Source: a phage | Direction: 5' to 3' (one strand) | DNA: 64,000 nt | Assembly: GCA_011911785.1 (NCBI GenBank) | Contig: GCA_011911785.1_4084.1 | Shown here: positions 24,684 to 62,702 of the stretch, in pieces | How the letters are laid out: every line of letters starts with the position of its first letter | How positions within the stretch are numbered: position 1 is the first letter of the stretch | Made by a program: the position numbers and the translations under genes | The notes under the pieces: generated by a model | What the model was told of the DNA's origin: nothing | Database searches by the model: none | The model's input: only the letters and a program-made list of their open reading frames with translations

Positions 24684-24895
24684 TTTTAAAATGATAAATA
24701 TAGGCTTGTTTTTGGGGGCGTTTTGGGGGGTCAAAAAAATTTTCGCTGAAAAACATGTTAAGGTATATGTTTAATATAAAATTTTATATTGTGTTTTTCA
24801 GAGTACAGTTCATGTTTCCTTAAACAAAAAATACCCCGCCGCCGAACGTGCTCCTTATATTGTAGTTTACCTTATTAATTATAGTAGAGGTTATT

Positions 24896-25252: not shown

Positions 25253-25263
25253 GGGTCTTAACT

Positions 25264-26104: not shown

Positions 26105-26105
26105 A

Positions 26106-26588: not shown

Positions 26589-26589
26589 A

Positions 26590-27033: not shown

Positions 27034-27488
27034 TGTCGTTACAAAGTGCATTGAAAGAAGCAAAGAAGATTCATGAGTACATGATTAAGGTCAAAGGTGG
27101 AGAAATTCCAGGTATCTTCAAAATGTCAGAGACTGAATATTGCACGAAGAATATTGAGGATTTTGATGGTTCTGATACATTAGTACTGCAATGTGATGAT
27201 TATGATCATGATAATTGTGGTTATAACCCTTTGTACTACTTTATCAATTACTACCCAGGGTCAGATATAACCGTATACAACCCTGATTATTATGCTAAAG
27301 ATTTGACAATTCCGTTTTCAGTACTGGATGGTCCGTGGGATAGTGAAGAGTATTACTTTCAGCAAAGTACTGTATATACTGAACATGAACTCGATACTCT
27401 GGTCATTATGTGGTACTTTAAAAGTATAGATTCAACATGTTTCTATATGGATTATGAATACATAGAGACACAGAAATATAAGAGGTAA
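27033..27488 (+). CDS. FQxS-motif family protein (151 aa), recent paralog
   Basis: motif EEYYFQQSTVYT; N-terminus MSLQSALKEAKKIHEYM. Confidence 0.7.
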   Translation: MSLQSALKEAKKIHEYMIKVKGGEIPGIFKMSETEYCTKNIEDFDGSDTLVLQCDDYDHDNCGYNPLYYFINYYPGSDITVYNPDYYAKDLTIPFSVLDGPWDSEEYYFQQSTVYTEHELDTLVIMWYFKSIDSTCFYMDYEYIETQKYKR

Positions 27489-27493
27489 TTGTA

Positions 27494-27940
27494 ATGTTTT
27501 TTTATTATTATGAAGTAAATGATAAGTTGGTTCAGGATATTGTACAAATAATCAAGTACTTCAATGATAATCCTAAAGTATTGGGTAGTGAACTTGAATA
27601 CGAGAAAGGTGGGTGTGTATATTTTACTTTCTGCGGTGGGTGCTCTGATGAGCAATCATTTTTCAATTCTTATTCAAATTACATCTCCTATAATGCACTT
27701 GCAGACGAGTTGATTGTGGTACGTGACAGTAGTGATGACCGTACAGTGTATACCAGAGAGACAATACAAAGTGTAGGTAATGAAGAAGGATACTTTCAAT
27801 TGAGTACAGTACTTAATCATGAAGAACTACATGTATTACGTTTGTTTTATCTTATTAGTACTATGAACTTGAAGCACGATCAGGTATACATTGATTTAGA
27901 TTACTTTGAGTACTTACGTAAGATTAGTTCTAAAAAATAA
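27494..27940 (+). CDS. FQxS-motif family protein (148 aa)
   Basis: motif EEGYFQLSTVLN. Confidence 0.65.
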   Translation: MFFYYYEVNDKLVQDIVQIIKYFNDNPKVLGSELEYEKGGCVYFTFCGGCSDEQSFFNSYSNYISYNALADELIVVRDSSDDRTVYTRETIQSVGNEEGYFQLSTVLNHEELHVLRLFYLISTMNLKHDQVYIDLDYFEYLRKISSKK

Positions 27941-27950
27941 GTTCATGCTA

Positions 27951-27978
27951 TTGACAAGAGCCTGTACTGTGTTACAAT
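27951..27978 (+). promoter_or_regulatory. sigma70-like promoter (TTGACA-N16-TACAAT)
   Basis: TTGACA 27951-27956; TACAAT 27973-27978 flanked by inverted repeat CTGTG...CACAG. Confidence 0.5.
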
Positions 27979-28012
27979 GCACAGTAATATTAATTCAAAA
28001 GGTGCACATTAA

Positions 28013-28546
28013 ATGATTATTGATGCTTACAATGCTGAGGAAATGCAGGAATTATCTCGTAAAATCAACATTATAGTTCCTTTGCTTAAGGATTGCAGTA
28101 CTGGTTTGATTCCATCACGAGACATTATTAAAGAAGGATACTACCTACAGGCAGTCTATAAGGGTGGTACATTTCATCGTTGTCGTGTATTACGTGATGG
28201 CCTTCCTGCACTTACACTTATTGGTATTGGTATTGCCGTATGCGGCACGAACCGTTTGTACTTGAATGAAAAAAATCAAATCATGAATTTGTTTTATACA
28301 GGAAAAAGTACTGAATTATATTTTGGTATTCAGAACTGGTGGGATACAGTAAAGAGTAGTACTATTGAAATCCCAAAATACAATTACAACACATTTGAAG
28401 AGCAGATGTTTCAATTGTCATGTACAGATGACATGTACATGATTCTACGTCTCTATATGGAGATGCAAATGAACTTCAGAAGTAATTTATACATTGATAC
28501 TTCAACATTTGAATTCGAAGATGTATTCGTTGATGGTATATTATGA
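28013..28546 (+). CDS. FQxS-motif family protein (177 aa)
   Basis: motif EEQMFQLSCTDD. Confidence 0.65.
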   Translation: MIIDAYNAEEMQELSRKINIIVPLLKDCSTGLIPSRDIIKEGYYLQAVYKGGTFHRCRVLRDGLPALTLIGIGIAVCGTNRLYLNEKNQIMNLFYTGKSTELYFGIQNWWDTVKSSTIEIPKYNYNTFEEQMFQLSCTDDMYMILRLYMEMQMNFRSNLYIDTSTFEFEDVFVDGIL

Positions 28547-28770
28547 AGTATATTCCAAAACACCAGTACTACAGGATGTGTTCTGACATTTACACAAAAT
28601 GGAATACATTTCATCCCCTTTTGAAGAAGAGGCGTCCATATCATGATTACAAGTTGAATCATTTTCTTGGAACTAATTATCAAGAGGTTGTGATGAAAGA
28701 TTACATTTTTAACCTTCAGAAATTAATTCAGAATAAAGTTCAAGGAAAGGGGGAGTCACCGTGGGTATAA
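28543..28770 (+). CDS. LGTNYQ-family small protein (75 aa)
   Basis: motif FLGTNYQEVV; ATGA overlap. Confidence 0.6.
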   Translation: MKYIPKHQYYRMCSDIYTKWNTFHPLLKKRRPYHDYKLNHFLGTNYQEVVMKDYIFNLQKLIQNKVQGKGESPWV

Positions 28771-28967
28771 GACACAGAGACATGCAAGATATTCTTAACC
28801 AATACAGTGCTCAAATGTTCACTGCAATCAGGTCTTCCAATCAAAATGACGTGTCGGAATTACAGTTACTGATGTACATAGGGACACAATACCAGGAGGC
28901 TTCAGTTGAGACGTATATTAAGTACCTATTGGGTATTATAAGGATGAAAAATGGACAATACTTTTGA
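28761..28967 (+). CDS. LGTNYQ-family small protein (68 aa)
   Basis: motif YIGTQYQEAS. Confidence 0.6.
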   Translation: MGIRHRDMQDILNQYSAQMFTAIRSSNQNDVSELQLLMYIGTQYQEASVETYIKYLLGIIRMKNGQYF

Positions 28968-29187
28968 ACAAGCACCAGCATCGGATTTTAGTTATGGGTT
29001 TATTATAGATATATTTTCTGGTACTGAAGAATCGGATATACCTCTTTATATCTTTGCTAATATGCGTTATATTTTTCGTATTGCAGAGGACAGTGACAAA
29101 TCTGATATGTCTTTTATGATTAAAAAAATCATATACTTATCGTGCTATGAATATATGAATGAAATGAGCGAACACTATGACCTATGA
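28951..29187 (+). CDS. hypothetical protein (78 aa)
   Basis: ORF coupled to neighbours. Confidence 0.45.
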   Translation: MDNTFEQAPASDFSYGFIIDIFSGTEESDIPLYIFANMRYIFRIAEDSDKSDMSFMIKKIIYLSCYEYMNEMSEHYDL

Positions 29188-29725
29188 TGAGATAATTTCT
29201 TTTGCAAATAAGTTAAGTACACTAACCAAATTGACGGAAGTAGTACTGCAAGATGAGCGTATACTTTCTAGGAGTGAGCTAATTGTTTCACAACACGATT
29301 ACATGACGTATATGTCTTTCAGATCGTCAGGCCGAACAATTATTAAGTTCGGTTCTGTTCCTGAAACAAATGGAAAATTATCTATGTGCACCCATAACAA
29401 TGGGGAATTGTATGGATTAGTGTACAGAAAAGATTCGACAGTACTGAATACTTTTAATGCAGGTGCGAGTGCAGTTGATGTTACATCATTAAGCGATGTT
29501 GACAAACACATAGATTTACCACACATTGAAATTAATGAAGAAAGTGTTTTTCAGTTAAGTACTTTGTACAATGATATTGAAGTGTTTGGTATTTCTTTAT
29601 GGAATATCCTTCGTTTAAGGGATGATGCTCCTGTATTTGTATATGCAAATTATGAAGACATTGATACTTGTATTGATGAAATGGAGAAATACATTGATCA
29701 ATTTAAACAAAACTTCCACATTTGA
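29177..29725 (+). CDS. FQxS-motif family protein (182 aa)
   Basis: motif EESVFQLSTLYN. Confidence 0.65.
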   Translation: MTYDEIISFANKLSTLTKLTEVVLQDERILSRSELIVSQHDYMTYMSFRSSGRTIIKFGSVPETNGKLSMCTHNNGELYGLVYRKDSTVLNTFNAGASAVDVTSLSDVDKHIDLPHIEINEESVFQLSTLYNDIEVFGISLWNILRLRDDAPVFVYANYEDIDTCIDEMEKYIDQFKQNFHI

Positions 29726-30284
29726 TATTCACGAGAAAGCTAAGCTACTCATCAGTACTGCTGAATATTATTACGATACAGTACTGAGTCAATCACCTTC
29801 TACATTTCGTGATTTAGTTAAATCATTTAATAAAACACAAAAAGACTGTGAGCTTTCATATAATGGTGTGAACTTTATGTATATTAAACCATATATGTCA
29901 AAGCGTGATTTGATTAAATGCAATGATGATTTCAAGATTGATCGTGATTTAAATCGTTTCTTCTACGATGTAAGAAGCAATCTGTATCAACTTACATTAA
30001 ATTCCAGTACTTCTTTCATTATTGGATTGGGTAAGAATTTAGGCACAGGTACTTCATTTTATAATAAAGGTGCAGTACAAGATGTGGATCTCAATCCAAG
30101 TACTGATGTTGCATTCCAACAGGATTTGATTATGAATGTGGATTCAGCATCAGTATACAGTTCTAATGTTCTGTGTAAGGAATTTCAGAATTCCAAAATT
30201 CTTGAGTTATTGTACATTGCGGATTGCAATATACTGTACAAATTTTGTACTCATCTGAAGGAGATTTATGAAAAAAGAAATTAG
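29676..30284 (+). CDS. FQxS-motif family protein (about 202 aa)
   Basis: motif DVAFQQDLIMN; start uncertain, chose ATG 29676 (track 29622). Confidence 0.5.
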   Translation: MKWRNTLINLNKTSTFDIHEKAKLLISTAEYYYDTVLSQSPSTFRDLVKSFNKTQKDCELSYNGVNFMYIKPYMSKRDLIKCNDDFKIDRDLNRFFYDVRSNLYQLTLNSSTSFIIGLGKNLGTGTSFYNKGAVQDVDLNPSTDVAFQQDLIMNVDSASVYSSNVLCKEFQNSKILELLYIADCNILYKFCTHLKEIYEKRN

Positions 30285-30636
30285 AATCCAATTCGGTATG
30301 AGGAAAAAAGAGGTCATTTGTACACTGAATCATGCGGTCGTGGAAAGGTTTGATGCATTACAAAAATTCTCCCATTTTGTTCTTGTACTATATGAAAATG
30401 GGTCTTTTAAAATCTTCACATATGATGATTCAAAAAATTATCGTAATGATTTTGTAAATCTTACAGTACTGTCAGAAGAGGAATTCTTTCAGGAAAGTAC
30501 AGTCTGGGATTTACCAGGAGCACCAATTGAATACGTCCGTGCTACACAGGCAGAAATGATCAAAGCAATGCAGAACTATCCAGAAGATCATATGACTAAG
30601 TTTCCTGAATCTATTCATGTAGAGGTTGAGTACTGA
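30268..30636 (+). CDS. FQxS-motif family protein (122 aa)
   Basis: motif EEEFFQESTVWD. Confidence 0.65.
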   Translation: MKKEIRIQFGMRKKEVICTLNHAVVERFDALQKFSHFVLVLYENGSFKIFTYDDSKNYRNDFVNLTVLSEEEFFQESTVWDLPGAPIEYVRATQAEMIKAMQNYPEDHMTKFPESIHVEVEY

Positions 30637-30974
30637 TGGATTTAGTAAAAGTTACTATAGCCAAACATCAGTACTATGTAATGATTGAGTTAGGTTATAA
30701 CCACAAGAAAGAACATTTTTATTATCTTACATATGAAAAGAATATGTTCAAGATAATCACTAATAATTTAGCACGAGATGTATTTCATATTTTTGATTAC
30801 AGTGATTATAGTGAAGAAGAGTTATTTCAGGAATCATTAGTATGGGAGTACAATAGAATTGTAGATATTGAAAAGTTATTTAAGTATCAACAACTAATGA
30901 AAGATATAATGAATAACTATCCATGTGAACTACAAAGAGAACTGGAATTTATTGTCCAATACAAAGAGGTTTAA
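30636..30974 (+). CDS. FQxS-motif family protein (112 aa)
   Basis: motif EEELFQESLVWE. Confidence 0.65.
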   Translation: MDLVKVTIAKHQYYVMIELGYNHKKEHFYYLTYEKNMFKIITNNLARDVFHIFDYSDYSEEELFQESLVWEYNRIVDIEKLFKYQQLMKDIMNNYPCELQRELEFIVQYKEV

Positions 30975-30976
30975 TT

Positions 30977-31513
30977 ATGTTAGATTATGACAGAATAGAG
31001 AAAGATGATTGGGACGGTACTCACCATTTAAAGGTTGACACTTTTGAACACGCTCGCAGTACTGCTCAAGATCTTATGCAAATCCATGAGTTCATTTGTA
31101 ATAACAGAGAGACTTCTATTTGGACAAAATCTGACAGATTTATTGATTCAAGTTATGATTACTTCAGTATTCGTTCAAATCATCTAGATGATGACGGGTA
31201 CAGTGTTGATATGTTCAATATCAACAAATTTAATGACCCTGAATATGATCCAAAATACAGCGGTGGATTTTTAAGTTATTCCCCTAACTATGACAGAATA
31301 AAGTTCTTTTACGTAGATACTGACATTGTTCTTCCATTTATCGAAGAAGAACTTACCGAAGAACTGTTCTTTCAGATGAGTACTGTTGACGACCCGTACA
31401 TAGTTGGTGTACAATTCATGTTCTCTTGGCTTAAACAGAATAACTTCCCTCCTTTTTATGTTGACCTTACTTTTTACGATTTGATTTGGAATTTTGTTCG
31501 TAATCCATCTTGA
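30977..31513 (+). CDS. FQxS-motif family protein (178 aa)
   Basis: motif EELFFQMSTVDD. Confidence 0.65.
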   Translation: MLDYDRIEKDDWDGTHHLKVDTFEHARSTAQDLMQIHEFICNNRETSIWTKSDRFIDSSYDYFSIRSNHLDDDGYSVDMFNINKFNDPEYDPKYSGGFLSYSPNYDRIKFFYVDTDIVLPFIEEELTEELFFQMSTVDDPYIVGVQFMFSWLKQNNFPPFYVDLTFYDLIWNFVRNPS

Positions 31514-31539
31514 CACCTCCTTCTGTGCATGATATAATC
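31510..31539 (+). promoter_or_regulatory. sigma70-like promoter (TTGACA-N18-TATAAT)
   Basis: TTGACA 31510-31515, TATAAT 31534-31539. Confidence 0.5.
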
Positions 31540-31569
31540 TTTTTCATCTAATACGAAAAGGATCATATC

Positions 31570-32076
31570 ATGCAATTCAATCCTGAACTCTCATACAGTA
31601 ATGCTATAACTTTTGCAGACAATTTAATTCGCATTCATAACTTTTTAAGAGATGTTGAAACTAATTTTGACGTTACATATGTGGACCCCAAAAGTGGAGA
31701 GATGTTTACCGATACAGTACAGGTATCCAGTATTCTGTCATTTCGTATGCATATGTTATACAGCAAAGTTGAAGCACATAATAATGTAAGAATTCTTGGT
31801 TCGTCATTCTTTGGATTCAATGCGAAAGCGAAAGGTACTCTTCGTTTTTATAAAGAATTTTTGGAGTACGAAGATATAGAATATATAGATCTCATTGATA
31901 TCAATGATGAGTGTGAATACTTTCAGTACTGCACAATCTATTCAGAAGATGTGGTTTTTGCATTAACTGCAATATCTGAATTGCATAAAAAATTACCACC
32001 AGATGCCCAATTTTACTTTGACCTTAGTGATTATGATATCATGTTGGATCATATTAATCGTGTAGGAGAATTGTAA
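31570..32076 (+). CDS. FQxS-motif family protein (168 aa)
   Basis: motif ECEYFQYCTIYS; RBS AAAGGA. Confidence 0.65.
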   Translation: MQFNPELSYSNAITFADNLIRIHNFLRDVETNFDVTYVDPKSGEMFTDTVQVSSILSFRMHMLYSKVEAHNNVRILGSSFFGFNAKAKGTLRFYKEFLEYEDIEYIDLIDINDECEYFQYCTIYSEDVVFALTAISELHKKLPPDAQFYFDLSDYDIMLDHINRVGEL

Positions 32077-32579
32077 TGCCTGATATTAGCAAACTTAATT
32101 ACGATGAGATTGAACAGTACGCAAAAGATATCTACGAAATCTATGATGAATTCAAGAACAATACTACAGCATTTGGTTCAATGTATTCTCGAAAAAAGAG
32201 TCTTAACAGGGATAGGAAAAGTTGTTTAACATATACACAGAAATCGGGCGAAATGATGGAAATCTTCTGTGAATCATTTGATGATAGTGAATATAGTGTA
32301 GGCATGAATTACCTATCTTACTCAAAAAAAGGTGAAGTTGTAGTAGATTTACGTCTTGAAAATGGTCGTAATAGAAAGAGTAGTATCAATGAAGAAGATG
32401 TAAAACTAATTTCTGAAGAAGATTACTTTCAGTTAAGTACTACTATGAATATGTTGGTATTGAATGTCATAACACTCTACGGTTTCCTTCGATATAAGCA
32501 TGAAATTGAAACTGACTTCTATTTTGATTTGAATGATTTTGAAGTATGTAAGGGATATCTAAATGGGAAAAGTAGTTGA
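32076..32579 (+). CDS. FQxS-motif family protein (167 aa)
   Basis: motif EEDYFQLSTTMN. Confidence 0.65.
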   Translation: MPDISKLNYDEIEQYAKDIYEIYDEFKNNTTAFGSMYSRKKSLNRDRKSCLTYTQKSGEMMEIFCESFDDSEYSVGMNYLSYSKKGEVVVDLRLENGRNRKSSINEEDVKLISEEDYFQLSTTMNMLVLNVITLYGFLRYKHEIETDFYFDLNDFEVCKGYLNGKSS

Positions 32580-32901
32580 TATTGAGTACATGCACGATGG
32601 TGATGAAATTTTCATTGTCCAAAAAGAATGCAAGGCTGGACATTGGGTTATCTTCTCTGTAGAAGAGGATGAATCCATTGTATCTTTTATTTCTACTAAA
32701 CACAAAGATACGAATTTAGAACTTCTTTACAATTTAAGTGAAGAAGAACTATTTCAAATGAGCACTGCATTTGAATATGATGTATACGAATTATTAGATG
32801 TACAGAATATTTTGTTGGAGTCTCTTCAGAAACTAAAACACAAAGATTTATTTCTGGTTAAATCATTTATGATGCACAAATTTACACTTGAGGTGGATTA
32901 A
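32563..32901 (+). CDS. FQxS-motif family protein (112 aa)
   Basis: motif EEELFQMSTAFE. Confidence 0.65.
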   Translation: MGKVVDIEYMHDGDEIFIVQKECKAGHWVIFSVEEDESIVSFISTKHKDTNLELLYNLSEEELFQMSTAFEYDVYELLDVQNILLESLQKLKHKDLFLVKSFMMHKFTLEVD

Positions 32902-33332
32902 TGTATTTTGAAATTATAAAAGTTAAATCAAAGGCTTTACTTAATACAAGATTTCAAACGTATGGTTGCACTCATAGTGTAATGCTGGATGATAATAACG
33001 AATTGTATTATTCTAAAGTAACACAACCAGTACCGGAGAATAAATTCTATATCTATTCTCACAAAGATAACTCACAATATGACATTGAGAATCTCGCTGT
33101 AATGCCACCTGACGAGCTATTTCAGTACAGCTTAGTATGTCCTTACCGTGGTGATATTGACCTTCTCAAGAAGATTCAGGAGGGTTTAATGGACTTTGTG
33201 CCTAAGTCTAGCCCTGAATATTTTTCAACTAATGTAGAGTTTTTAAAGATCGAAAGAGAAATTCCTGATTATATGCTTAGTGATGATGAGTTCTACGATA
33301 AGCATTTCCCAGGAAAAAAATGGAGAGATTAA
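32901..33332 (+). CDS. FQxS-motif family protein (143 aa)
   Basis: motif PDELFQYSLVCP. Confidence 0.65.
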   Translation: MYFEIIKVKSKALLNTRFQTYGCTHSVMLDDNNELYYSKVTQPVPENKFYIYSHKDNSQYDIENLAVMPPDELFQYSLVCPYRGDIDLLKKIQEGLMDFVPKSSPEYFSTNVEFLKIEREIPDYMLSDDEFYDKHFPGKKWRD

Positions 33333-33802
33333 TGACATTCCAGGAAGATATTGATTTTGCAAAAAAGATTTACAAAATTCATCTTATAATGGAAAGTACT
33401 GAGTTCCAAAATCGTTCATATGTCGATAAGATTAAAAGCTGTGATAAAAGTTCATTTGTCATAAAACTACCTACATTCAAATCCAAAAGAGAGGCCATCT
33501 ACGCTACGATTTATGATGATTCAGAATACAATCTAATGGATTTGTACATGACCTTTACCCCAGGGAATACACTTGTATGTTACTTCCAATGGGAGGAAGA
33601 GACAATTGTACTTGATAATATAGGTTCTTATAAGCCTACTGAAGAGACGCACTTTCAGTTATCTTTGATCTATACAGAAGAAACAGTTCGTGCTATAATG
33701 TTGTATTCATATCTCAATAGTGTAAATGCCAGTGCTTTCTATCTGGATTTAGTACATCTTGAACTTATTGAGGAATTACTTGCAGAGGAACTTTCTCTAT
33801 GA
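33320..33802 (+). CDS. FQxS-motif family protein (160 aa)
   Basis: motif EETHFQLSLIYT. Confidence 0.65.
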   Translation: MERLMTFQEDIDFAKKIYKIHLIMESTEFQNRSYVDKIKSCDKSSFVIKLPTFKSKREAIYATIYDDSEYNLMDLYMTFTPGNTLVCYFQWEEETIVLDNIGSYKPTEETHFQLSLIYTEETVRAIMLYSYLNSVNASAFYLDLVHLELIEELLAEELSL

Positions 33803-34269
33803 TAGAATCCGAAGAGTTAGTACTGGATGGTCACGTTATCCGATACGATTCATATGCGGCGTGTATTGATTTTGCAAAGATTTTGATGAAGATTTATCAT
33901 GCTGGTAATAATGGTAAATTTGACAAAGTGTTTGAAAAATCATTTACTCATAATGCATGGTATTACGCTGGTACTGAAGTTTTAAACATAGGGGAATCAG
34001 TGTGTGATAATGAATCATTCATGAGCTTTGATTACTATTATATTCAGTACCATTCATACCTTGATAAAATTTGTGTTCATGACAGTGATTTTAAAGTATT
34101 ACCTTCATATATTGAAATATGTAATGAAGAGATGTACTTTCAAAACTCATTATTATATACAAGTAATATACTTTTACTATCTGTGATTGTAACATACTTA
34201 AGAAGCGAAGGACTTAATTCCTTTTATATTGATTTGGATTTCTTTAATACATTTTTGGAACATTTATAA
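33799..34269 (+). CDS. FQxS-motif family protein (156 aa)
   Basis: motif EEMYFQNSLLYT. Confidence 0.65.
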   Translation: MIESEELVLDGHVIRYDSYAACIDFAKILMKIYHAGNNGKFDKVFEKSFTHNAWYYAGTEVLNIGESVCDNESFMSFDYYYIQYHSYLDKICVHDSDFKVLPSYIEICNEEMYFQNSLLYTSNILLLSVIVTYLRSEGLNSFYIDLDFFNTFLEHL

Positions 34270-34278
34270 AGGTGCTAT

Positions 34279-34785
34279 ATGTCGAGGAAACTATCAGAAC
34301 TAATAAAGTTCGCAAAGGATTGTCTTGATACAATAACTTATTTGTACGTTAATGAAGTTAATTTGCATAGATATTTCGCTATCCATCACAGTACTGAATC
34401 GTCTTTCAATATTCGTCACGGTGCTCATAGTATATATTTTCATACTAAAGCTGAAGATCGTCTGGCTCATTCTATGTTTGAGAAAGGTAAAACGGACTAT
34501 ATTCTATTTCGTTCAGATGGTTCTGATATAAAATATATCGCTCACCAAAGAGGAAAAGCCCAATTTATTAATCATATACTTCCGTACATTACGGATTTAA
34601 CGGATGAAAATTATTTCCAAAATTCATTAATTTACAATGACTCTGAACTTAAAGCAATGTTTATTCTATCGTACTTTAAAAAATATAGTGAGTTTCAGAG
34701 AATTAGTTTTGAATTTGCTTCAATGAAGCACTTTATTAAACAGGTAAGGATTTTAAAAAATGCTGACAAACGAAACAATAGATAA
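34279..34785 (+). CDS. FQxS-motif family protein (168 aa)
   Basis: motif DENYFQNSLIYN. Confidence 0.65.
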   Translation: MSRKLSELIKFAKDCLDTITYLYVNEVNLHRYFAIHHSTESSFNIRHGAHSIYFHTKAEDRLAHSMFEKGKTDYILFRSDGSDIKYIAHQRGKAQFINHILPYITDLTDENYFQNSLIYNDSELKAMFILSYFKKYSEFQRISFEFASMKHFIKQVRILKNADKRNNR

Positions 34786-35374
34786 AATCAGTCAGATAAG
34801 TTTAGAACTAATTCGTATTCATGAATTTGCATGGCGTCTAACAAATCGTGTTATTTCATTTCATACCAGTACTGAACAAAATTCTACATACAAATTTGAC
34901 CGTGGTGACAAATGGTTTGATTTAATGGATGAAAATTGTAAAGCTATCATCTGCGTAAGAACAGAATTGACCGACCACAACAGAGAAAGAGATTTAGATA
35001 TATATATGCCCGGTTCTTATATTTGTATCTCAAGAAGCGATGGTATTTTTATTAGTTCATCTGGACTTAATTATCTTAATAAAGTCTACATTGATATGGA
35101 TGAAGAAGAAGAATACTATGTCACAACACATGAACCTGAATTTCTGGATATTCCAGATGATGATGTACTCGACGAAACATTGTTTCAGTACTCATTAATT
35201 CACAACGCCTGTGTTATTGATGCTATTAAATTTTGTAAAAATCTATCCCCTAAATTACCATTAACAAAGTATATCAAATTAGAACCTGAAATATTCAAAG
35301 AACAGGACTGGGATGGGTTATTACTTAAATTAAAAAGTATTACTGAAGAAAACATATGTACAATTGGGGATTAA
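34760..35374 (+). CDS. FQxS-motif family protein (204 aa)
   Basis: motif DETLFQYSLIHN. Confidence 0.65.
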   Translation: MLTNETIDKISQISLELIRIHEFAWRLTNRVISFHTSTEQNSTYKFDRGDKWFDLMDENCKAIICVRTELTDHNRERDLDIYMPGSYICISRSDGIFISSSGLNYLNKVYIDMDEEEEYYVTTHEPEFLDIPDDDVLDETLFQYSLIHNACVIDAIKFCKNLSPKLPLTKYIKLEPEIFKEQDWDGLLLKLKSITEENICTIGD

Positions 35375-35378
35375 TTGA

Positions 35379-36011
35379 ATGAGTACAAAAAGAAAACCAA
35401 TTTCAAAGTACGTGTTTCATCGCCTAGAGTATAAGCACTGCATTGCGTATGCACGAGCATTAACAGACATATTACCACGTCTGAAGGATGATAAGTTCCT
35501 TGAATGTTATGACATGCGTTTTCATAACAATGTTCTTGAGTACATAGAATCAGATGATAGTGAGTTGAATGAAGTATGGCTTGATTTCAGTCCTAGTGGT
35601 TTAGATAAAAATAGAGTTGGGAACTTGGGTCTATTTTATACGCACTGCTTGAACTTCGATTTGTCAGATAAAACATTAGTACTGGATAGTAATGAGGTAC
35701 TTAGATTGAACCTCAATGTTATGGATTATTCAGAAGAAGCATTCTTTCAAAATAGTTTAATATATGAACCGAATGATTTATTATATACTATTGTTTTCCC
35801 ATATCTACATGAGCACCTTAAAGGTACTACAGTTCAAAGAGCAGACATTACCTTTAGTTTAGTAAATTTATTCAAGTACAGTGACGTATTCAAAGAAATA
35901 TGTATTGAAGGCGGTTACTTCGATGACCTTGCTGATTTGAATAACATGGCGTTTGAAAATGATAATTATTTTAACGATACCTATATAGGCGGTTCAAGGA
36001 TAATGAAATGA
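35379..36011 (+). CDS. FQxS-motif family protein (210 aa)
   Basis: motif EEAFFQNSLIYE. Confidence 0.65.
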   Translation: MSTKRKPISKYVFHRLEYKHCIAYARALTDILPRLKDDKFLECYDMRFHNNVLEYIESDDSELNEVWLDFSPSGLDKNRVGNLGLFYTHCLNFDLSDKTLVLDSNEVLRLNLNVMDYSEEAFFQNSLIYEPNDLLYTIVFPYLHEHLKGTTVQRADITFSLVNLFKYSDVFKEICIEGGYFDDLADLNNMAFENDNYFNDTYIGGSRIMK

Positions 36012-37190: not shown

Positions 37191-38599
37191 AAAGTAATTT
37201 AGAAAATATACGCAAAAAAGCCGATAATTTAGTACTATGTTGTATAGGGGCTTTATTTGCTGTTACTTTAGTTTCCGGTGTTGTTCATGGTAGTTTTATT
37301 ATTGCACTAATCGGTGCAGTTTTATTATTAGTAATGCTAACTCCTTTACTATTTGTTGAAAGTAATGCGTTCACTCGAACGTTGTTAAGTATAAATGTGA
37401 TGTGCTGGAGTGCGTTACTAATACATCTTGGCTTAGGGATGGTGGAATGGCACTTTACAGTTTTTGTCTTTTTAAGTTTATTGATTGTATGGCGTGACTG
37501 GCGTTGTGTATTAGCAGGTTCAGTACTGATTGCTATACATCATTTATTATTTGGATTGTTACAGGGTGCTGGAATTCCAATATTATTCGTGTTTTCTTTT
37601 CACCATATTTCGTTATGGCACATTATAGAGCACGCAATATATGTAGTAGTACAGGCAATAGTTCTGATGTACGTAGCGTACATTATGGAGAAAGATGCAA
37701 ATGAAGCAGATGAAATTCAACGAATTGCAAGATCAGTGAATTCTGAAGACGGCAATATTACTTTAGAAATACAAAATAATCATTTCAACTCCGAATTTGC
37801 ACAGACTTTTAGTAAAACAATATCAGCTATGCGTGAGGCAATTGAACAAGTACAAATTACAGTTCAGTCAATGAAAAGCAACTCCTATCATCTCGAAAGT
37901 AAAAGTAATGATTTAGCTTTCAGAACTGAAACACAAGGACAGGCACTTACTCAAATCGCTGCTGCTATGGAAGAATTAAGTGCTACATCTGCAAATACAT
38001 CTGATAACTCCAATACTGCAAAAAGTATGGTTAAAACTACAAAAGAATCCAGTACTAATGCAATTGAAAGTATCAATAATTGCAAAGAGCAGATGGATAG
38101 AATTAAAGAAGATTCTAATGCTATAGTTGCTATACTCAAAAATATAGAAACTATTGCTTTCCAGACTAATATTCTTTCTTTAAATGCCAGTATTGAAGCT
38201 GCTAAAGCTGGTGAACATGGTCGTGGATTCTCTGTTGTTGCACAGGAAGTTCGTAACTTAGCAATGAAATGTGATGCATGTAGTAAAGAAATTAAAGAAA
38301 TCGTTGATAACTCCGTAAAAAACAACAACCAAGGAATAGAACAAATCAACGAAACTGCAAGTGATATTGATTCTATTGTAAAAAATGTTGATTCACTCTT
38401 GCAGTTCATTGATGATTTAGCTATAATGGCTGAACAACAAAGCATTGCAATCCTTCAGGTTACCGAGAGTGTTAATATGATGGACCGTTCAGTACAGCAA
38501 AATGCGGAGCATGTAAAGGACACAATGATGATGGTAGACAATCAACAGTCTGAAGTACATGCTTTACAAAAAGCCACTTCGATTTTTAACGTGAAATAA
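37187..38599 (+). CDS. methyl-accepting chemotaxis protein (MCP)-like membrane transducer (470 aa)
   Basis: multiple N-terminal TM helices; C-terminal MCP signalling domain with core [35 protein letters not shown]; TTG start with TTGA overlap, RBS GGAGA. Confidence 0.8.
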
Positions 38600-54031: not shown

Positions 54032-54304
54032 ATGGACTATCGAGTACTGAATAGAACATATAAAGCTTTATACAAAACATATATTGAAAGTAAAGTACAT
54101 AATCCTATCATTTATAAAAATCCAGTTTATATTATATGGAATGAATATTTTACAATGATTCAAAATTACTTTTACTCTAACGAAATCTTTATAGATGGTG
54201 AAATGCGTAAGCTAACACGCGTTGATAGTATAGGTGGTGAAATTGTGTTATTCTATACTGATTCTATTATTGGACAACAATCTATAAATTTAGAGATATT
54301 ATAA
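54032..54304 (+). CDS. YIGK-motif ~90-aa paralog family member (90 aa)
   Basis: first of tandem paralogs; RBS AAGGAAAAG. Confidence 0.55.
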   Translation: MDYRVLNRTYKALYKTYIESKVHNPIIYKNPVYIIWNEYFTMIQNYFYSNEIFIDGEMRKLTRVDSIGGEIVLFYTDSIIGQQSINLEIL

Positions 54305-54570
54305 TGAATTATAAGGATTTACATTTCACCTATAAACTAACATTTTATATGTATCGTTACGCTGATAACAACTTAATGGATAATGCATTTTATCATCGTT
54401 TGTGGAGTGATTATATAAAATCTTTACGTGAACATTTTATAGGTACTATAATTCAATACGAAGGTAAAACAGTAAAAATATTTCAAGTTGATAGTTACAA
54501 CGGGGATCTATGCTTCAGGGGTAGAGATTCTAGTGATGGATTACATGAGATTTATATCTATGAATTATAA
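54304..54570 (+). CDS. YIGK-motif family member (88 aa)
   Basis: N-terminus MNYKDLHFTYK; segment REHFIGTIIQYEGK. Confidence 0.6.
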   Translation: MNYKDLHFTYKLTFYMYRYADNNLMDNAFYHRLWSDYIKSLREHFIGTIIQYEGKTVKIFQVDSYNGDLCFRGRDSSDGLHEIYIYEL

Positions 54571-54835
54571 GGATTTACAATTCACGTACAAAATTCTTCA
54601 TGAACAATATGAACGTGGTGAAGGAATATTAACTTACGATGAACGAGATTTTTTTCTTACATTGTGGTGTGAATATTTGGCAATGATTAACGAGATTTTT
54701 GTTGATAAAGAATATATGATTGACGACATGACTGTACGTATTATCAGAATTAAAAGTTATAATGGAAGTCTTGTTGGAATTTACTATAACAATGAAAAGG
54801 CGAAAAGCGGATTTGTTGATTTGGAGTACCTATGA
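54560..54835 (+). CDS. YIGK-motif family member (91 aa)
   Basis: track ORF 54488 trimmed to MNYKDLQFTYK start. Confidence 0.55.
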   Translation: MNYKDLQFTYKILHEQYERGEGILTYDERDFFLTLWCEYLAMINEIFVDKEYMIDDMTVRIIRIKSYNGSLVGIYYNNEKAKSGFVDLEYL

Positions 54836-55095
54836 ACTATCATGATTTACAATTCACATATCAACTTTTATATGATGATATGAATAACGAATTAGGTTTC
54901 TACTATGAAGTACGTAATAAAATATGGTCAAATTATCTATCTGAGATACAACATCATTTTATAGGACTTCCAATACGTAGAAATAATAAAAACTATCGTT
55001 GTACTGATGTAGTAAGTCATAGAGGTAGGTTGCGTTTAGAATTCTACCGCAGAGACGGGGACTTCATTGGTATAAATTTACTGGATTTTAAATGA
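54832..55095 (+). CDS. YIGK-motif family member (87 aa)
   Basis: N-terminus MNYHDLQFTYQ; segment QHHFIGLPIRRNNK; ATGA overlap. Confidence 0.6.
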   Translation: MNYHDLQFTYQLLYDDMNNELGFYYEVRNKIWSNYLSEIQHHFIGLPIRRNNKNYRCTDVVSHRGRLRLEFYRRDGDFIGINLLDFK

Positions 55096-55379
55096 TGAAA
55101 AACAACTTAAAGGAAATACAAGTATTTTATAGCTTCTTATACTTGTCATATGTAACAGATGAGTACTATGAAAGTGTGTATTATTTTTTATGGCAACATT
55201 ACCGTACTATAGTAAGAGATTTATATATAGGAAAATCTATCATATCCAATGGTGAAAAATGTACCTGTACTGATGTTGTTAGTTTTAATGGTTCTTTAAC
55301 ACTGTGTTTCAGATGCGATAATAATAGTGGGTCATTTTCATTAAACGTATATCAGTTAGAAGGAATAAATTTTGAATAA
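55092..55379 (+). CDS. YIGK-motif family member (95 aa)
   Basis: segment RDLYIGKSIISNGEKCTCTDVVS. Confidence 0.6.
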   Translation: MMKNNLKEIQVFYSFLYLSYVTDEYYESVYYFLWQHYRTIVRDLYIGKSIISNGEKCTCTDVVSFNGSLTLCFRCDNNSGSFSLNVYQLEGINFE

Positions 55380-59238: not shown

Positions 59239-59502
59239 ATGAATATCCAAGATAGATTGCAATTGTTGCACACACTTGAAGAAGCTGCTTTTGAACTTGT
59301 TAATAAAATTGCACAAGAACTCCCAAAAGGAACCAACATTCGTGTTCGTGAAATGGATTATTTAACGGGAGAAATTGAAGAAAAAGTTCTAACAGTGATC
59401 AAAGTAACATACTATGAATCAGAGTTATCAATTCAATGTAAGTCAGATAATGGTTACGTTTCCTACTATGGCACAGATGTAGATATAGAGGTAATTAGAT
59501 GA
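59239..59502 (+). CDS. hypothetical protein (87 aa)
   Basis: track ORF 59194 trimmed to ATG just after the upstream stop. Confidence 0.45.
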   Translation: MNIQDRLQLLHTLEEAAFELVNKIAQELPKGTNIRVREMDYLTGEIEEKVLTVIKVTYYESELSIQCKSDNGYVSYYGTDVDIEVIR

Positions 59503-60644
59503 GTAATTTACGAGAAATATACAATGATTTAATGGAACTATGTGAATCTAATGATGCATTTTTCTATATAGATCACACAAGCCCAGGTGGTGGTTTATAC
59601 CGTGTATTCACCTATCGTCTGGCATCTTATACTGATTTCACAAATAAAAATGCACTAGAAACTCGTGGTTCTATGTGGGAAATTGATTCCAACGGAATTA
59701 TGATTCGTTGTGCAGCACGTACAATGAAAAAGTTCTTCAATGCATATGAAAACCCTTACACAATGTTCAGTACTGATACTACCTGTGATGATATTGCGGT
59801 TGTAATGCCTAAGCTAGATGGTTCTATCATCAGCACATTCCGTGATAACGATGGTGAAATCCGTTGTAAATCACACACTTCGTTATCGTCTGACCATGCT
59901 ATTAACAGTACTCGCCTTTTGAACGAGAACCAAAATCTCTATCAATACATTGATGAAGCAGACCGTTTGGGCTATACTGTGAATCTGGAATACACAAGCC
60001 CAGAGTATCGAATTGTGTTACCATATCAGGTGGAACAGTTATTTGTTCTTAACGTTCGTCATCGTATTAGTGGTGAGTTGTTATGCGGTAAAGCACTACG
60101 TGATAAGTTTCCATGCCTTTCACAGTACAGTACTAATATGACAGGTAATGACATTCATCATACATTCCCGATTATGCCTACATTTAAAGAGTCAATCGAT
60201 AAAGTACGTTCTATGCTTGACATTGAAGGTTTTGTGTGTATAATGAAAGATGGTACAATGTGCAAAATCAAAACTGACTGGTATTGCTCTTTGCATTTAA
60301 CAAAAGATTCCATTCTTATTGATTCCCATTTATATGAAGCTGTACTGACTGGTGCAAGTGATGACTTAAAACAATTGTTCAGTACTGATACATATGCAAT
60401 GGATAAGATATTAAGAATGGAACAATTGGTATTTTCGTGCTATAATGCTTTACAAGATGAGGTAGAAAGCTTCGTCCATGCATACAAGCACTTAGAGCGA
60501 AAGGAATTCGCACAAAAGGTTCAGCAAGATTTACCTAATGTATTGAACCGACAAGGCTTGGCCTTTGCGTTGTACAATGGCAAAAGTGTCGATTATAAAG
60601 AGACTTTACTAAAGTACTACAAAGATGTACTAAAGGATTTTTAG
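59499..60644 (+). CDS. rnlA: RNA ligase 1 (T4 Rnl1 / gp63-like), 381 aa
   Basis: colinear similarity to T4 RnlA as recalled (LMELC...FFY start, adenylation KxDG motif VVMPKLDGS, EGFV and K-x-K segments). Confidence 0.85.
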   Translation: MSNLREIYNDLMELCESNDAFFYIDHTSPGGGLYRVFTYRLASYTDFTNKNALETRGSMWEIDSNGIMIRCAARTMKKFFNAYENPYTMFSTDTTCDDIAVVMPKLDGSIISTFRDNDGEIRCKSHTSLSSDHAINSTRLLNENQNLYQYIDEADRLGYTVNLEYTSPEYRIVLPYQVEQLFVLNVRHRISGELLCGKALRDKFPCLSQYSTNMTGNDIHHTFPIMPTFKESIDKVRSMLDIEGFVCIMKDGTMCKIKTDWYCSLHLTKDSILIDSHLYEAVLTGASDDLKQLFSTDTYAMDKILRMEQLVFSCYNALQDEVESFVHAYKHLERKEFAQKVQQDLPNVLNRQGLAFALYNGKSVDYKETLLKYYKDVLKDF

Positions 60645-60673
60645 TACTAACTAGCCCAGCACAAGGAGAAGTG

Positions 60674-60928
60674 ATGGCTAAACCTAAGTATAAAAATGAT
60701 GGTTCCCTTTCTCCTACTGAGTTCAGGAAAATACAACAAGAAATCGATGATTTACAGCACAAACGCTCAATGAAAGGTGTGAAGATTAGTAAGAAGCGAA
60801 TCGAGAATACTTTTGGGTGTAGTAGTACTGAATATAAGAAGAAAAGGAAACCAAAGGATGTTAAGCCGAGAATACATGATGTAACTCGCTATACATCAAA
60901 ACGTGAAAATAAATTCGATCCACTATAA
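60674..60928 (+). CDS. hypothetical basic protein (84 aa)
   Basis: RBS AAGGAGA; Lys/Arg-rich. Confidence 0.5.
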   Translation: MAKPKYKNDGSLSPTEFRKIQQEIDDLQHKRSMKGVKISKKRIENTFGCSSTEYKKKRKPKDVKPRIHDVTRYTSKRENKFDPL

Positions 60929-60937
60929 GGAGTTCAT

Positions 60938-61174
60938 ATGAAAGTTGAAGTTCAGCATAGTATTGTTCAGGATATGTCAGTGGTTAAGTTTCTTTCTCTG
61001 AAAGATTACTTCAGATGTATCAAGTTCCTTGAAGAATCTCAATTACAGTGGACCCCCTTAAAGTACAGTTCATCCAATGACACTGCTAGTATTCGTTGTG
61101 ATGAAGCTGTACTTGTAAAAATCTCCAAGCGATTTGGAGTTGGGAAATACAATGAAAAACAATCATTCAAGTGA
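60938..61174 (+). CDS. hypothetical protein (78 aa)
   Basis: RBS AAGGAG upstream. Confidence 0.5.
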   Translation: MKVEVQHSIVQDMSVVKFLSLKDYFRCIKFLEESQLQWTPLKYSSSNDTASIRCDEAVLVKISKRFGVGKYNEKQSFK

Positions 61175-61406
61175 TTTGTTATATTATAAAGTACTATCAG
61201 AATGTTTGACGGATATATTGTACCGTGAGAGTAATACTCTACGTGAAAAATATATTAACAAAAGAGTACGTTATAAATCATCTTATGATGGGATGAATGT
61301 TTATGGTAAAATCACTAATGTATATGTAGATGATGATTTTACATTGAATATCATTGTCGATAATTGTATTAGTATCTCAATTGATGATATTATTGAGGTA
61401 ATCTAA
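61134..61406 (+). CDS. hypothetical protein (90 aa), possibly related to the YIGK family
   Basis: segment KYINKRVRYKSSYDGMNVYGKI. Confidence 0.45.
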   Translation: MELGNTMKNNHSSDLLYYKVLSECLTDILYRESNTLREKYINKRVRYKSSYDGMNVYGKITNVYVDDDFTLNIIVDNCISISIDDIIEVI

Positions 61407-61717
61407 TGAATAAAGCATTAAAAGAACTTAATAATTTAATGAATGCAGAAATTGAATTAACTAATACTATTTCTGAAATTGTTCATGATATGATTACACA
61501 ATACAAGAAATCACTCATTGGTAAGAAAGTTGAATGCTGGGATTACAACACTAAAACATGGTTCGAAACTATCATTAGTGATGTTAATGTTAAATTTCAT
61601 GTAGTTACTCATCACATTTCTGACGAGTGCTATGTAGAAGTAACTATAGGACACAACACGCGACATGAACGTTTTTCGTGGTACAATCTAAAGAATGTGA
61701 AATTTATTGAGGATTAA
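61406..61717 (+). CDS. hypothetical protein (103 aa), possibly related to the YIGK family
   Basis: segment SLIGKKVECWDYNTKTWFETI. Confidence 0.45.
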   Translation: MNKALKELNNLMNAEIELTNTISEIVHDMITQYKKSLIGKKVECWDYNTKTWFETIISDVNVKFHVVTHHISDECYVEVTIGHNTRHERFSWYNLKNVKFIED

Positions 61718-62650
61718 ATGCCAACTATTACACTAACAGTTGGATTGCCAGGATGTGGTAAAACCACGTGGGCAGTGCAAGAAATTAAAAAAGCAAAGTC
61801 CAAGACTATCAACATCAACCGTGATGATATTCGAGAGTCTATGGCTGGGTCACATGATGCTTATAAATTCACTGATGCGAACGAGAAGTACGTAACTAAT
61901 CAACAGTTCAGTGCAGCAAACGCCGCAGCAGCGAATGGATGGAACATTATTGTGTCCGATACGAACCTGAAACAAGGTTTTCGTGATGAATGGAAACGTT
62001 GGGCTAAAGATAATGGTTATGATTACAAAGAAAAGAACTTCTATGATGATTTTGTGCCTAATGAAGACCGTGGTGCAGATGTTCATGAATTCTTTAAGAT
62101 TAAAGAGTTCGTAAAACTTTGTAAGAAATATAACCTCCAGCGTGAGCGTTCAGTTCAAGATGATATCATTGACACAATGGCAGATACGTACTATTATAGA
62201 AAGGCATTACACATTGGTTACTATGGTAATGCACGTGAAGCTGCTATCATTGTTGATATCGACGGTACTCTTGCTCATAAGTGGGGACGTAACCCGTTTG
62301 ATGAAAGTACTGTCCTTCAGGATACACCAGATGAAGAAGTAATTCTGTCTGTCATTGCTGAGGCTGTTTTCCATAAGCGTAAGGTAATCGTCATGAGTGG
62401 GCGTACTGAAGGGTGTCGTGCTGATACTGAACAGTGGCTTAAGAATTGGGGCATTCCCTACGATGTATTGTTAATGCGAGCTATCGATGATAAACGTCCT
62501 GATGATGTTGTCAAATTCGAGTTGTATATGAATAACGTTGTTAATCATTACGATGTTAAGAAAGTATTTGATGACAGGGCCGCCGTTGTATTCATGTGGC
62601 GTAAGCTACTAGGCTTGAAAGTATTTCAGGTGGAACCTGGACTATTTTGA
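61718..62650 (+). CDS. pseT: polynucleotide 5'-kinase / 3'-phosphatase (T4 Pnk-like), 310 aa
   Basis: N-terminal P-loop GLPGCGKTT and C-terminal HAD-type DxDGT motif (IVDIDGTLA); colinear with T4 PseT as recalled. Confidence 0.85.
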   Translation: MPTITLTVGLPGCGKTTWAVQEIKKAKSKTININRDDIRESMAGSHDAYKFTDANEKYVTNQQFSAANAAAANGWNIIVSDTNLKQGFRDEWKRWAKDNGYDYKEKNFYDDFVPNEDRGADVHEFFKIKEFVKLCKKYNLQRERSVQDDIIDTMADTYYYRKALHIGYYGNAREAAIIVDIDGTLAHKWGRNPFDESTVLQDTPDEEVILSVIAEAVFHKRKVIVMSGRTEGCRADTEQWLKNWGIPYDVLLMRAIDDKRPDDVVKFELYMNNVVNHYDVKKVFDDRAAVVFMWRKLLGLKVFQVEPGLF

Positions 62651-62657: not shown

Positions 62658-62688
62658 AAAGGGATCAGTACTGATCCCTTTTCTTTTA
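62658..62688 (+). terminator. rho-independent terminator
   Basis: perfect palindrome AAAGGGATCAGTACTGATCCCTTT followed by a T-rich tract. Confidence 0.65.
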
Positions 62689-62702
62689 ATTTAGGTGATA
62701 TA

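Follow-up and report, generated by a model that had tools for sequence, protein, structure and literature searches.

In bacteriophage T4, the genes for RNA ligase 1 (rnlA) and for the polynucleotide kinase/phosphatase (pseT) are separated by four genes: alc, the spanin genes pseT.3 and pseT.2, and pseT.1. Three of the four do work that has no connection with RNA repair, so nothing can be concluded about an ORF merely from its lying between the two enzymes. Bacterial Pnkp-type systems combine the end-healing enzyme with a ligase of a different clade and with a Hen1 methyltransferase. The C-terminal domain of T4 Rnl1 confers tRNA specificity (PMC6379707), and RNA repair by Rnl1 and PNK-HAD enzymes figures as a jumbo-phage counter-defence in the passages on this subject in Iyer et al. 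(2021; Viruses 13:63; PMC7824862). Both repair genes are already annotated in GenBank for the near-identical phage A4 and its relatives; because of these annotations and the existing review of jumbo-phage RNA repair, a pair of this kind was already known.

The window, by which we mean the whole 64-kb stretch of phage DNA that was analysed, is 98.5% identical to jumbo Escherichia phage A4 (Asteriusvirus). It is 90% coding and holds 154 same-strand ORFs with a median length of 104 aa; a tRNA scan found no tRNA genes in it, and an Rfam scan no Rfam matches anywhere along its length. It contains a T4-type RNA repair pair, Rnl1 and Pnk, whose identities are confirmed below. The ORFs that the initial annotation had assigned to the two enzymes lie on the + strand at exactly the coordinates it gave, and four small + strand ORFs do fill the interval between them (60674–61717). 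The pair at 59499–62650 is very probably orthologous, as the jumbo-phage counterpart, to T4 rnlA and pseT, and forms the 3′-terminal part of a + strand, early-type transcription unit. The features of the locus are as follows.

59499–60644, + strand: rnlA-type RNA ligase 1 (Rnl1), 381 aa, with an adenylyltransferase domain and a C-terminal Rnl1 domain.
60674–60928, + strand: ORF1, 84 aa, basic (pI 10.1, 24 K/R) and helical, directly 3′ of rnlA in RaK2/GAP32-like jumbo phages.
60938–61174, + strand: ORF2, 78 aa, pI 9.2, an orphan family with a putatively ACT-like beta-beta-alpha-beta-beta-alpha fold.
61152–61406, + strand: ORF3, 84 aa, a lineage-specific ORFan, given from its annotated ATG start (mechanical TTG start at 61134).
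61406–61717, + strand: ORF4, 103 aa, phrog_31355, in a hypervariable slot just upstream of pnk.
61718–62650, + strand: pseT-type 5′-kinase/3′-phosphatase (Pnk), 310 aa, with an N-terminal P-loop kinase and a C-terminal HAD phosphatase.
62658–62690, + strand: intrinsic-terminator-like hairpin with a 10-bp stem, a 4-nt loop and a T-run, 8 nt past the pnk stop codon.

The ligase assignment is carried by both of its domains. Pfam recovers RNA_lig_T4_1 (PF09511; E 1.6e-15, 58 bits against a cut-off of 28.3) and, over residues 269–367, T4_Rnl1_C (PF20819; E 7.2e-15, 55.8 bits against a cut-off of 27); the protein also matches phrog_562 (E 2e-106), passes the NCBIfam equivalog cut-off of TIGR02308 (284.7 bits against 242.25), and aligns with the T4 Rnl1 structures 2c5u, 5tt6 and 9do4 at E values of about 1e-55. 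It shares with T4 RnlA (gp63; PDB 2c5u, 5tt6) the two-domain architecture of an Rnl1 adenylyltransferase followed by the Rnl1-specific C-terminal domain, at 42% identity over 304 aligned residues. The KxDG nucleophile, which the initial annotation had proposed to re-inspect, is common to both: motif I reads K105-L-D-G and aligns with T4 K99-E-D-G. Thirteen of the 14 active-site and ATP-contact residues mapped from T4 are conserved (Y39, R56, K78, F80, K105, D107, G108, E164, E243, G244, K256, K258, Y262). Within this set, the N-terminal subdomain residues R56, K78 and F80 (T4 R54, K75, F77) and the residues of motifs III, IV and V, E164, E243, G244, K256 and K258 (T4 E159, E227, G228, K240, K242), are invariant among 14 diverse Rnl1 sequences drawn from seven phage groups, and the catalytic pattern is likewise kept on divergent metagenomic contigs. 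By its homology to the T4 enzyme, the ligase is predicted to have ATP-dependent RNA sealing activity.

The evidence for the kinase/phosphatase is similar in kind: Pfam matches to HAD_PNKP (PF25109; E 9.5e-42, 142.9 bits against a cut-off of 27.6) and AAA_33 (E 5.8e-14), a match to phrog_505 (E 5e-94), and alignment with the T4 Pnk structure 1ltq (E 8.8e-37). For both enzymes, then, the homology searches uphold the original assignment at E values that exclude chance. The kinase P-loop, G9-LPGCGKT-16, fits GxxGxGK[ST] and retains K15 and T16, and the equivalents of T4 Asp35 and Arg38 are D36 and R39. In the phosphatase, the DxDGT motif is present as D180-I-D182-G-T, and R191, R229, D262, D285 and D286 complete the set known from T4 (D165, D167, R176, R213, D254, D277, D278). 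All mapped residues of both domains are thus conserved except at one ambiguous position: T4 Arg126 aligns to Gln141, beside an insertion, and next to it stands Arg142, the same in every clade member examined. Relative to T4 PseT (PDB 1ltq), in which an N-terminal P-loop kinase is likewise fused to a C-terminal HAD phosphatase (38% identity over 282 aligned residues), the differences recorded are this ambiguous position and a kinase-domain insertion of about 19 residues (about residues 109–128). Homology to T4 predicts 5′-kinase and 2′,3′-cyclic/3′-phosphatase activity on RNA ends. The retention of catalytic residues in Rnl1 and Pnk at overall identities of 41–64% points to selection on catalysis.

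The two genes have the same order and orientation as in T4, an arrangement retained by Asteriusvirus, GAP32, RaK2, XaC1, 7t3 and uncultured relatives. The start codon of rnl1 overlaps the stop codon of the ORF before it (ATGA), so at least one other gene precedes rnl1 in the transcription unit. The hairpin downstream of pnk has a centroid energy of -13.5 kcal/mol (z -2.6), and a hairpin with a T-tract occurs at the same place in 10 of 12 related loci, with differing stem sequences. A perfect 12/12 sigma-70 consensus within rnl1 (60217–60244) was considered and set aside: its -10 hexamer varies among relatives, so the match is probably a by-product of the coding sequence.

On the T4 model, a host ribotoxin, for example a PrrC-type anticodon nuclease, would cut tRNA to leave 2′,3′-cyclic-phosphate and 5′-OH ends. 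Pnk would strip the 3′ phosphate with its HAD domain (nucleophile Asp180 of the DIDGT motif) and phosphorylate the 5′-OH with its P-loop kinase domain (Lys15/Thr16, Asp36, Arg39). Rnl1 would then adenylylate itself on Lys105, pass AMP to the 5′-phosphate and seal the break, directed to tRNA anticodon loops by its C-terminal domain; transcription of the unit probably ends at the terminator just 3′ of pnk. The sequences themselves show the identity of the two genes, their domain make-up, the retained catalytic residues and the conserved synteny. The heal-and-seal role that had been proposed for this locus follows from homology to the T4 enzymes, and it is from this analogy that we infer the enzymatic activities, the tRNA substrate and the counter-defence role in the phage studied here. 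A related Asteriusvirus encodes eight tRNAs, with tRNA-Lys not among them (PMC12805682), so it would have no copy of its own with which to get round a cleaved tRNA-Lys. In a transposon screen, the PseT orthologue of the T4-like phage Bas37 was among the genes with the most significant fitness effects in the comparison of clinical E. coli isolates with K-12 (bioRxiv 10.1101/2025.11.20.689424).

It is also conceivable, if rather improbable, that tRNA repair is not the main function, and that Rnl1 is kept mainly for a non-ligase role such as tail-fibre attachment (cf. T4 gp63) and Pnk for general end processing. T4 Rnl1 has an additional, non-catalytic role in tail-fibre attachment, and the PHROGs label of the ligase family reads "RNA ligase and tail fiber protein attachment catalyst". 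Even on K-12, a host with no known anticodon nuclease, T4 requires the N-terminal domain of rnlA, and the C-terminal domain, which carries tRNA specificity, tolerates insertions (bioRxiv 10.1101/2025.11.20.689424). The tail-fibre role and the requirement on K-12 offer other possible reasons for keeping the ligase gene. However, apart from one residue of motif Ia, the catalytic residues of all three ligation steps are invariant across very divergent phages and the C-terminal Rnl1 domain is retained, a combination difficult to account for unless ligase chemistry is under selection; the lasting linkage to an intact end-healing enzyme also fits a heal-and-seal pathway.

One substitution in the ligase bears on this alternative in the other direction. 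The motif Ia lysine of T4 Rnl1 (K119, in S118-K119) is H126 here (KSHTS), and K124, the equivalent of T4 K117, is retained two residues upstream. This histidine is conserved across the enterobacterial and uncultured RaK2-like jumbo-phage clade, in contrast to the sampled XaC1, T4-like, Vibrio, Acinetobacter, Aeromonas and Campylobacter phages, which do not have the substitution. In T4 Rnl1, K119 is reportedly essential, a result attributed to Wang, Ho and Shuman in 2003; a histidine side chain can be positively charged. The basic residue at this place in motif Ia makes contact with the ATP gamma-phosphate and has been proposed to bind the RNA 5′-phosphate in step 2 (PMC6379707, Trl1 paper), and its replacement by His126 means that the ligation chemistry of Rnl1 could be altered.

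The four spacer ORFs are heterogeneous and do not form one unit. By tblastn, ORF3 is found in phage A4 only; it is absent from Turkey3 and the Salmonella relatives, and has no PHROG, Pfam or PADLOC match. ORF4 is confined to Escherichia Asteriusviruses, where it is about 38% identical while the flanking ORF2 and Pnk are 91–95% identical, and Salmonella Asteriusviruses have lost both ORF3 and ORF4. The "transcriptional regulator" label carried by the ORF4 counterpart in fEgEco12 is without support, since no family match accompanies it. By their distribution, ORF3 and ORF4 count as dispensable passengers that occupy a variable slot. ORF1 and ORF2, by contrast, occupy the interval between the two enzyme genes in most of the RaK2/GAP32-like jumbo-phage supergroup, and their conservation marks them as residents of the cassette; they belong to orphan families without a link to known nuclease modulators. 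The initial suggestion that the small ORFs might be accessory factors or analogues of nuclease modulators finds no support for ORF3 and ORF4; for ORF1 and ORF2, which are conserved in place, it may hold.

Two further origins for the spacer ORFs were rejected. ORF3 and ORF4 might have belonged to dispersed families of small paralogues filling the window, but BLASTP and phmmer comparisons with all 154 window ORFs gave nothing significant for these or the other two. ORF2, which has the size of T4 PseT.1 and the same place upstream of pseT, is not its homologue by hhalign (probability 0.15%). An ORF2 profile searched against 1.84 billion representative proteins recovered its own family only, apart from weak multi-stretch matches to five proteins of 472–1458 aa (E 8e-06 to 1e-04), which were discounted, and BFVD returned only the RaK2 orthologue.

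On balance, we slightly favour the reading that the spacer ORFs are unrelated small early genes, as in T4, and that the linkage of rnlA and pseT reflects inherited order and not operon design. The make-up of the T4 spacer supports it; small ORFs are everywhere in so densely coding a window; the interval between ORF2 and pnk holds from zero to three differing ORFs, depending on the phage; ORF3 is restricted and ORF4 hypervariable, as described; and no small ORF has a credible Pfam (E ≤ 5), NCBIfam or PADLOC match. Set against this, the conservation of ORF1 and ORF2 in position and sequence across genera is unusually strong for passengers in a region that otherwise turns over fast.

That conservation leaves room for a less likely reading, in which an RNA-repair cassette of four or five genes includes ORF1, ORF2 and, in GAP32, XaC1, 7t3 and contig L018, a third small ORF as its dedicated accessory subunits. 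Pnk, for example, could have in ORF2 an ACT-like partner that regulates it or binds ends, and Rnl1 could have in ORF1 a basic, helical partner that binds RNA. ORF1 is invariably the next gene after rnlA, and ORF2 adjoins or overlaps pnk in GAP32, XaC1, 7t3 and SD-6_S16 and is fused in frame to Pnk in Salmonella phage SD-15_S21. The order is kept on contigs whose Rnl1 is just 41–48% identical and whose flanking genes differ, and ORF2 is conserved as well as the enzymes or better. Both proteins are basic, and ACT domains are typically regulatory modules on enzymes, kinases included. Extended further, and with as much doubt, phages of the RaK2/GAP32/Asteriusvirus type might have an ancestral Rnl1-ORF1-ORFx-ORF2-Pnk cassette in which ORF1 (basic helix) and ORF2 (ACT-like) are dedicated partners, which may co-vary with the motif Ia change from lysine to histidine. 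If this were true, ORF1 and ORF2 could serve to target or regulate the ligase and the end-healing enzyme, or to form a bridge between them.

The annotation confirms a classic T4 heal-and-seal tRNA repair pair in a jumbo coliphage, which is relevant to predicting which tRNA-cleaving defences a phage overcomes, as in the choice of therapeutic jumbo phages. The new points are minor: the motif Ia substitution in the Rnl1 clade, the ORF2-Pnk fusion in one Salmonella phage, and the terminator after pnk in most relatives. The possible addition to knowledge is small, and consists of two orphan proteins fixed between the enzymes supergroup-wide and a conserved histidine replacing a ligase residue thought to bind the RNA 5′-phosphate. 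Each of these could turn out to mark a variant of a pathway that has been studied thoroughly; so far they are leads only.

Compared with known systems, the locus resembles the T4 rnlA-alc-pseT.3-pseT.2-pseT.1-pseT block in having the ligase upstream, the kinase downstream and four intervening genes, but the spacer genes are non-homologous, those of T4 belonging to other PHROG families (Alc, spanins, phrog_2347). Bacterial Pnkp1 (PDB 4xrp) is the second-best solved-structure match to Pnk (E 1.6e-29), and the two share the kinase and HAD-phosphatase architecture over their full length; Pfam, PHROG and ORF inspection of the cassette showed no Hen1-like gene. The conserved ORF1/ORF2 cassette residents and the motif Ia substitution are not described in the sections of Iyer et al. 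(2021) that deal with RNA repair. The jumbo-phage systems presented in those sections are otherwise alike, deploying an Rnl1-type ATP-grasp ligase and a PNK-HAD end-healing enzyme against tRNA-cleaving host effectors.

The RNA repair pair proposed in the initial annotation, an Rnl1-like ligase and a Pnk-like kinase/phosphatase separated by four small ORFs, is confirmed: both ORFs lie exactly where they had been placed, and both enzyme assignments are supported by homology and by individual residues. The pair itself is already known, from GenBank annotation and from published comparative work. The window is 98.5% identical over its full length to Escherichia phage A4 (ON286972.1; 355.5 kb, genus Asteriusvirus, isolation host E. 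coli LF82), and 35 further Asteriusvirus-type jumbo phages with E. coli and Salmonella hosts match it at 80-90% identity; A4 labels the pair 'RNA ligase' and '3'-phosphatase, 5'-polynucleotide kinase', with equivalent names in most relatives. New, though only mildly so, are the fixing of an orphan gene pair within the cassette, a one-off ORF2-Pnk fusion, a hypervariable slot upstream of pnk, and a clade-specific Lys-to-His change in motif Ia of the ligase.

Features of the cassette
59499-60644, + strand: rnl1 (rnlA type), RNA ligase 1
60674-60928, + strand: ORF1
60938-61174, + strand: ORF2
61152-61406, + strand: ORF3
61406-61717, + strand: ORF4
61718-62650, + strand: pnk (pseT type), kinase/phosphatase
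62658-62690, + strand: 10-bp hairpin then T-run, 8 nt past the pnk stop

Rnl1 (381 aa) matches Pfam RNA_lig_T4_1 and T4_Rnl1_C, PHROG 562 (E 2e-106) and the NCBIfam equivalog TIGR02308 (284.7 bits; trusted cut-off 242.25), and aligns with solved T4 Rnl1 structures at E ~1e-55. Pnk (310 aa) matches Pfam HAD_PNKP (E 9.5e-42) and AAA_33 as well as PHROG 505 (E 5e-94), and aligns end to end with both T4 Pnk (1ltq, E 8.8e-37) and bacterial Pnkp1 (4xrp, E 1.6e-29). The catalytic motifs that the initial annotation had singled out for re-inspection are present, KLDG (Lys105) in the ligase and DIDGT (Asp180, Asp182) in Pnk, and Pnk also has the P-loop GLPGCGKT. Equivalents of T4 Pnk K15, S16 (Thr here), D35, R38, D165, D167, R176, R213, D254, D277 and D278 were all found. 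T4 Arg126 aligns with Gln141, beside a kinase-domain insertion, but all clade members examined share the adjoining Arg142. This insertion, ~19 residues that T4 Pnk lacks (about residues 109-128; window about 62042-62101), occurs throughout the clade, XaC1 having a longer version. Fourteen T4 Rnl1 residues were mapped (Y37, R54, K75, F77, K99, D101, G102, K119, E159, E227, G228, K240, K242 and Y246), and the window enzyme is identical at 13 of them, K119 being the sole exception. The retention of catalytic residues at 41-64% overall identity argues for selection on catalysis.

The exception falls in motif Ia, where Lys119 of T4 Rnl1 becomes His126 (codon at 59874-59876). The T4 Rnl1 variant K119A is reportedly defective in overall ligation. 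The equivalent basic residue of fungal Trl1 touches the ATP gamma-phosphate, and a role in binding the RNA 5'-phosphate in step 2 has been proposed for it (PMC6379707). When 14 Rnl1 sequences were aligned, the residue here was His for the window, Turkey3, SD-15_S21, GAP32, RaK2 and 7t3, and Lys for Xanthomonas phage XaC1, T4 and T4-like phages of Klebsiella, Aeromonas, Acinetobacter, Vibrio, Cronobacter and Campylobacter. His is found in three divergent metagenomic relatives as well, and every one of the enterobacterial and uncultured RaK2-like jumbo phages examined has it. Because the change is clade-wide and all other residues are intact, we read it as probably tolerated or compensated; Lys124 lies two residues upstream of His126.

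For the activities of Rnl1 and Pnk, their natural substrate and the host nuclease they would counter, the model is inferred from homology with T4. A host ribotoxin would leave RNA with 2',3'-cyclic-phosphate and 5'-OH ends; Pnk would heal both, and Rnl1 would seal the healed ends, its C-terminal domain steering the ligase to tRNA. Several published observations support this heal-and-seal model: a jumbo-phage survey already includes Rnl1 with PNK-HAD among the means of countering defences that cleave tRNA (Iyer et al., PMC7824862); a related Asteriusvirus encodes eight tRNAs, tRNA-Lys not among them (PMC12805682); and in a transposon screen of a T4-like phage, its PseT orthologue was one of the genes whose fitness effects on clinical E. 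coli isolates versus K-12 were most significant (bioRxiv 10.1101/2025.11.20.689424). The main rival holds that the ligase gene is kept for tail-fibre attachment, the second role of T4 gp63, and it draws support from the requirement of T4 for the rnlA N-terminal domain even on K-12 (bioRxiv 10.1101/2025.11.20.689424).

The cassette has features of a transcription unit's end. The rnl1 start codon overlaps the stop of the upstream ORF, and a Shine-Dalgarno-like sequence precedes every gene in the block. The hairpin and T-tract recur at the same post-pnk position in 10 of 12 related loci (L001-L007, L016, L017 and L021), with stem sequences that vary between genera. This positional conservation fits a maintained intrinsic terminator and argues that pnk is the last gene of the unit. 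A perfect 12/12 sigma-70 consensus (TTGACA, 16 nt, TATAAT) lies inside rnl1 at 60217-60244 (+ strand); because the -10 hexamer is CATCCT in Turkey3 and SD-15_S21, this match was rejected as a promoter and is probably a coincidence of coding sequence.

The four spacer ORFs differ in kind, ORF1 and ORF2 being fixtures whereas ORF3 and ORF4 are variable. By tblastn, ORF1 occurs in 62 and ORF2 in 71 phage records, from phages of Escherichia, Salmonella, Klebsiella, Cronobacter, Erwinia, Yersinia, Serratia, Pectobacterium and Xanthomonas, and at every locus examined they sit between rnlA and pseT. The conservation of ORF2 equals or exceeds that of the enzymes (ORF2, Rnl1 and Pnk: 66%, 59% and 58% identity to GAP32; 55%, 49% and 45% to XaC1). 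Gene order is kept on metagenomic contigs with different flanking genes and Rnl1 only 41-48% identical: L018 reads Rnl1-ORF1-ORFx-ORF2-Pnk, and L020 reads Rnl1-ORF1-(weak ORFx-like)-Pnk, ORF2 being absent. ORFx (~74 aa, phrog_26893) separates ORF1 from ORF2 in GAP32, XaC1, 7t3 and the divergent L018, and is missing in Asteriusvirus and RaK2; the ancestral cassette probably had five genes.

Positions of ORFx
L004 (GAP32): 2764-2988, GAP32_082
L006 (related locus): 2770-2994
L007 (related locus): 2764-2991
L018 (metagenomic contig): 4242-4469

In Salmonella phage SD-15_S21 (L003:3437-4588), ORF2 and Pnk are fused in frame (...GKYNE|MPTITL..., 383 aa), a product labeled only hypothetical in its record; in its sister SD-6_S16 (L016:1601-2742) the junction is 10 nt shorter and ORF2 overlaps pnk out of frame. 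Neither record labels Pnk as such. ORF1 and ORF2 are orphan families, with no match in Pfam, NCBIfam or PADLOC. ORF2 forms 30 clusters in a 5.8-billion-protein set and, when 1.84 billion proteins are considered, just three representatives at the 50% identity level; ORF1 forms 61 clusters, every one 57-97 aa and without a Pfam domain. ORF1 is strongly basic (pI 10.1; Lys/Arg at 24 of 84 residues), and its predicted model, a single long helix plus a short one, gave no informative match in a fold search.

ORF3 was found only in A4; Turkey3 and most relatives lack it. ORF4 is restricted to Escherichia Asteriusviruses and is ~38% identical to its positional counterparts, a figure that rises to 91-95% for the flanking ORF2 and Pnk; Salmonella Asteriusviruses lack both ORFs. 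With zero to three ORFs across phages, those of the other phages being unrelated, the ORF2-pnk interval behaves as a variable insertion slot. The 'transcriptional regulator' label on an ORF4 counterpart (fEgEco12 g185, L017:1198-1509) appears unsupported (best Pfam E 0.14).

ORFs in the ORF2-pnk interval
0: GAP32, XaC1, 7t3, Salmonella phages
1: Turkey3
2: window (61152-61717, + strand) and A4
3: RaK2 and contig L021

More broadly, the 64-kb window is ~90% coding, with 154 small ORFs on one strand (median 104 aa), and scans of its whole length found no tRNA genes or Rfam families. Some small ORFs form paralogous families (BLASTP E<=1e-3), and one longer ORF encodes a signalling domain that is unusual cargo for a phage genome.

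Other features of the window
13178-19738 and 28543-28967, + strand: 25-member small-ORF family, mostly tandem at 13-19 kb
17755-36011, + strand: 13-member small-ORF family
54032-55379, + strand: 5-member small-ORF family
37334-38599, + strand: 421-aa ORF, methyl-accepting chemotaxis protein signalling domain (PF00015, E 5.5e-37, residues 232-385)

We consider it unlikely that ORF1 and ORF2 truly serve the RNA repair cassette as accessory components; if they did, the cassette would be a variant, of moderate interest, on a textbook pathway. By PHROG family, the spacer genes of T4 (alc, pseT.3, pseT.2 and pseT.1) are a host-transcription inhibitor, two spanins and one unknown, and location between rnlA and pseT is therefore by itself no evidence of an RNA-repair role. 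Kinship of ORF2 with PseT.1 is ruled out (hhalign probability 0.15%). The layout is nevertheless alike in T4—rnlA, four genes, then pseT, on a single strand—and the rnlA-to-pseT linkage is therefore old, common to T4-like phages and this jumbo-phage supergroup.
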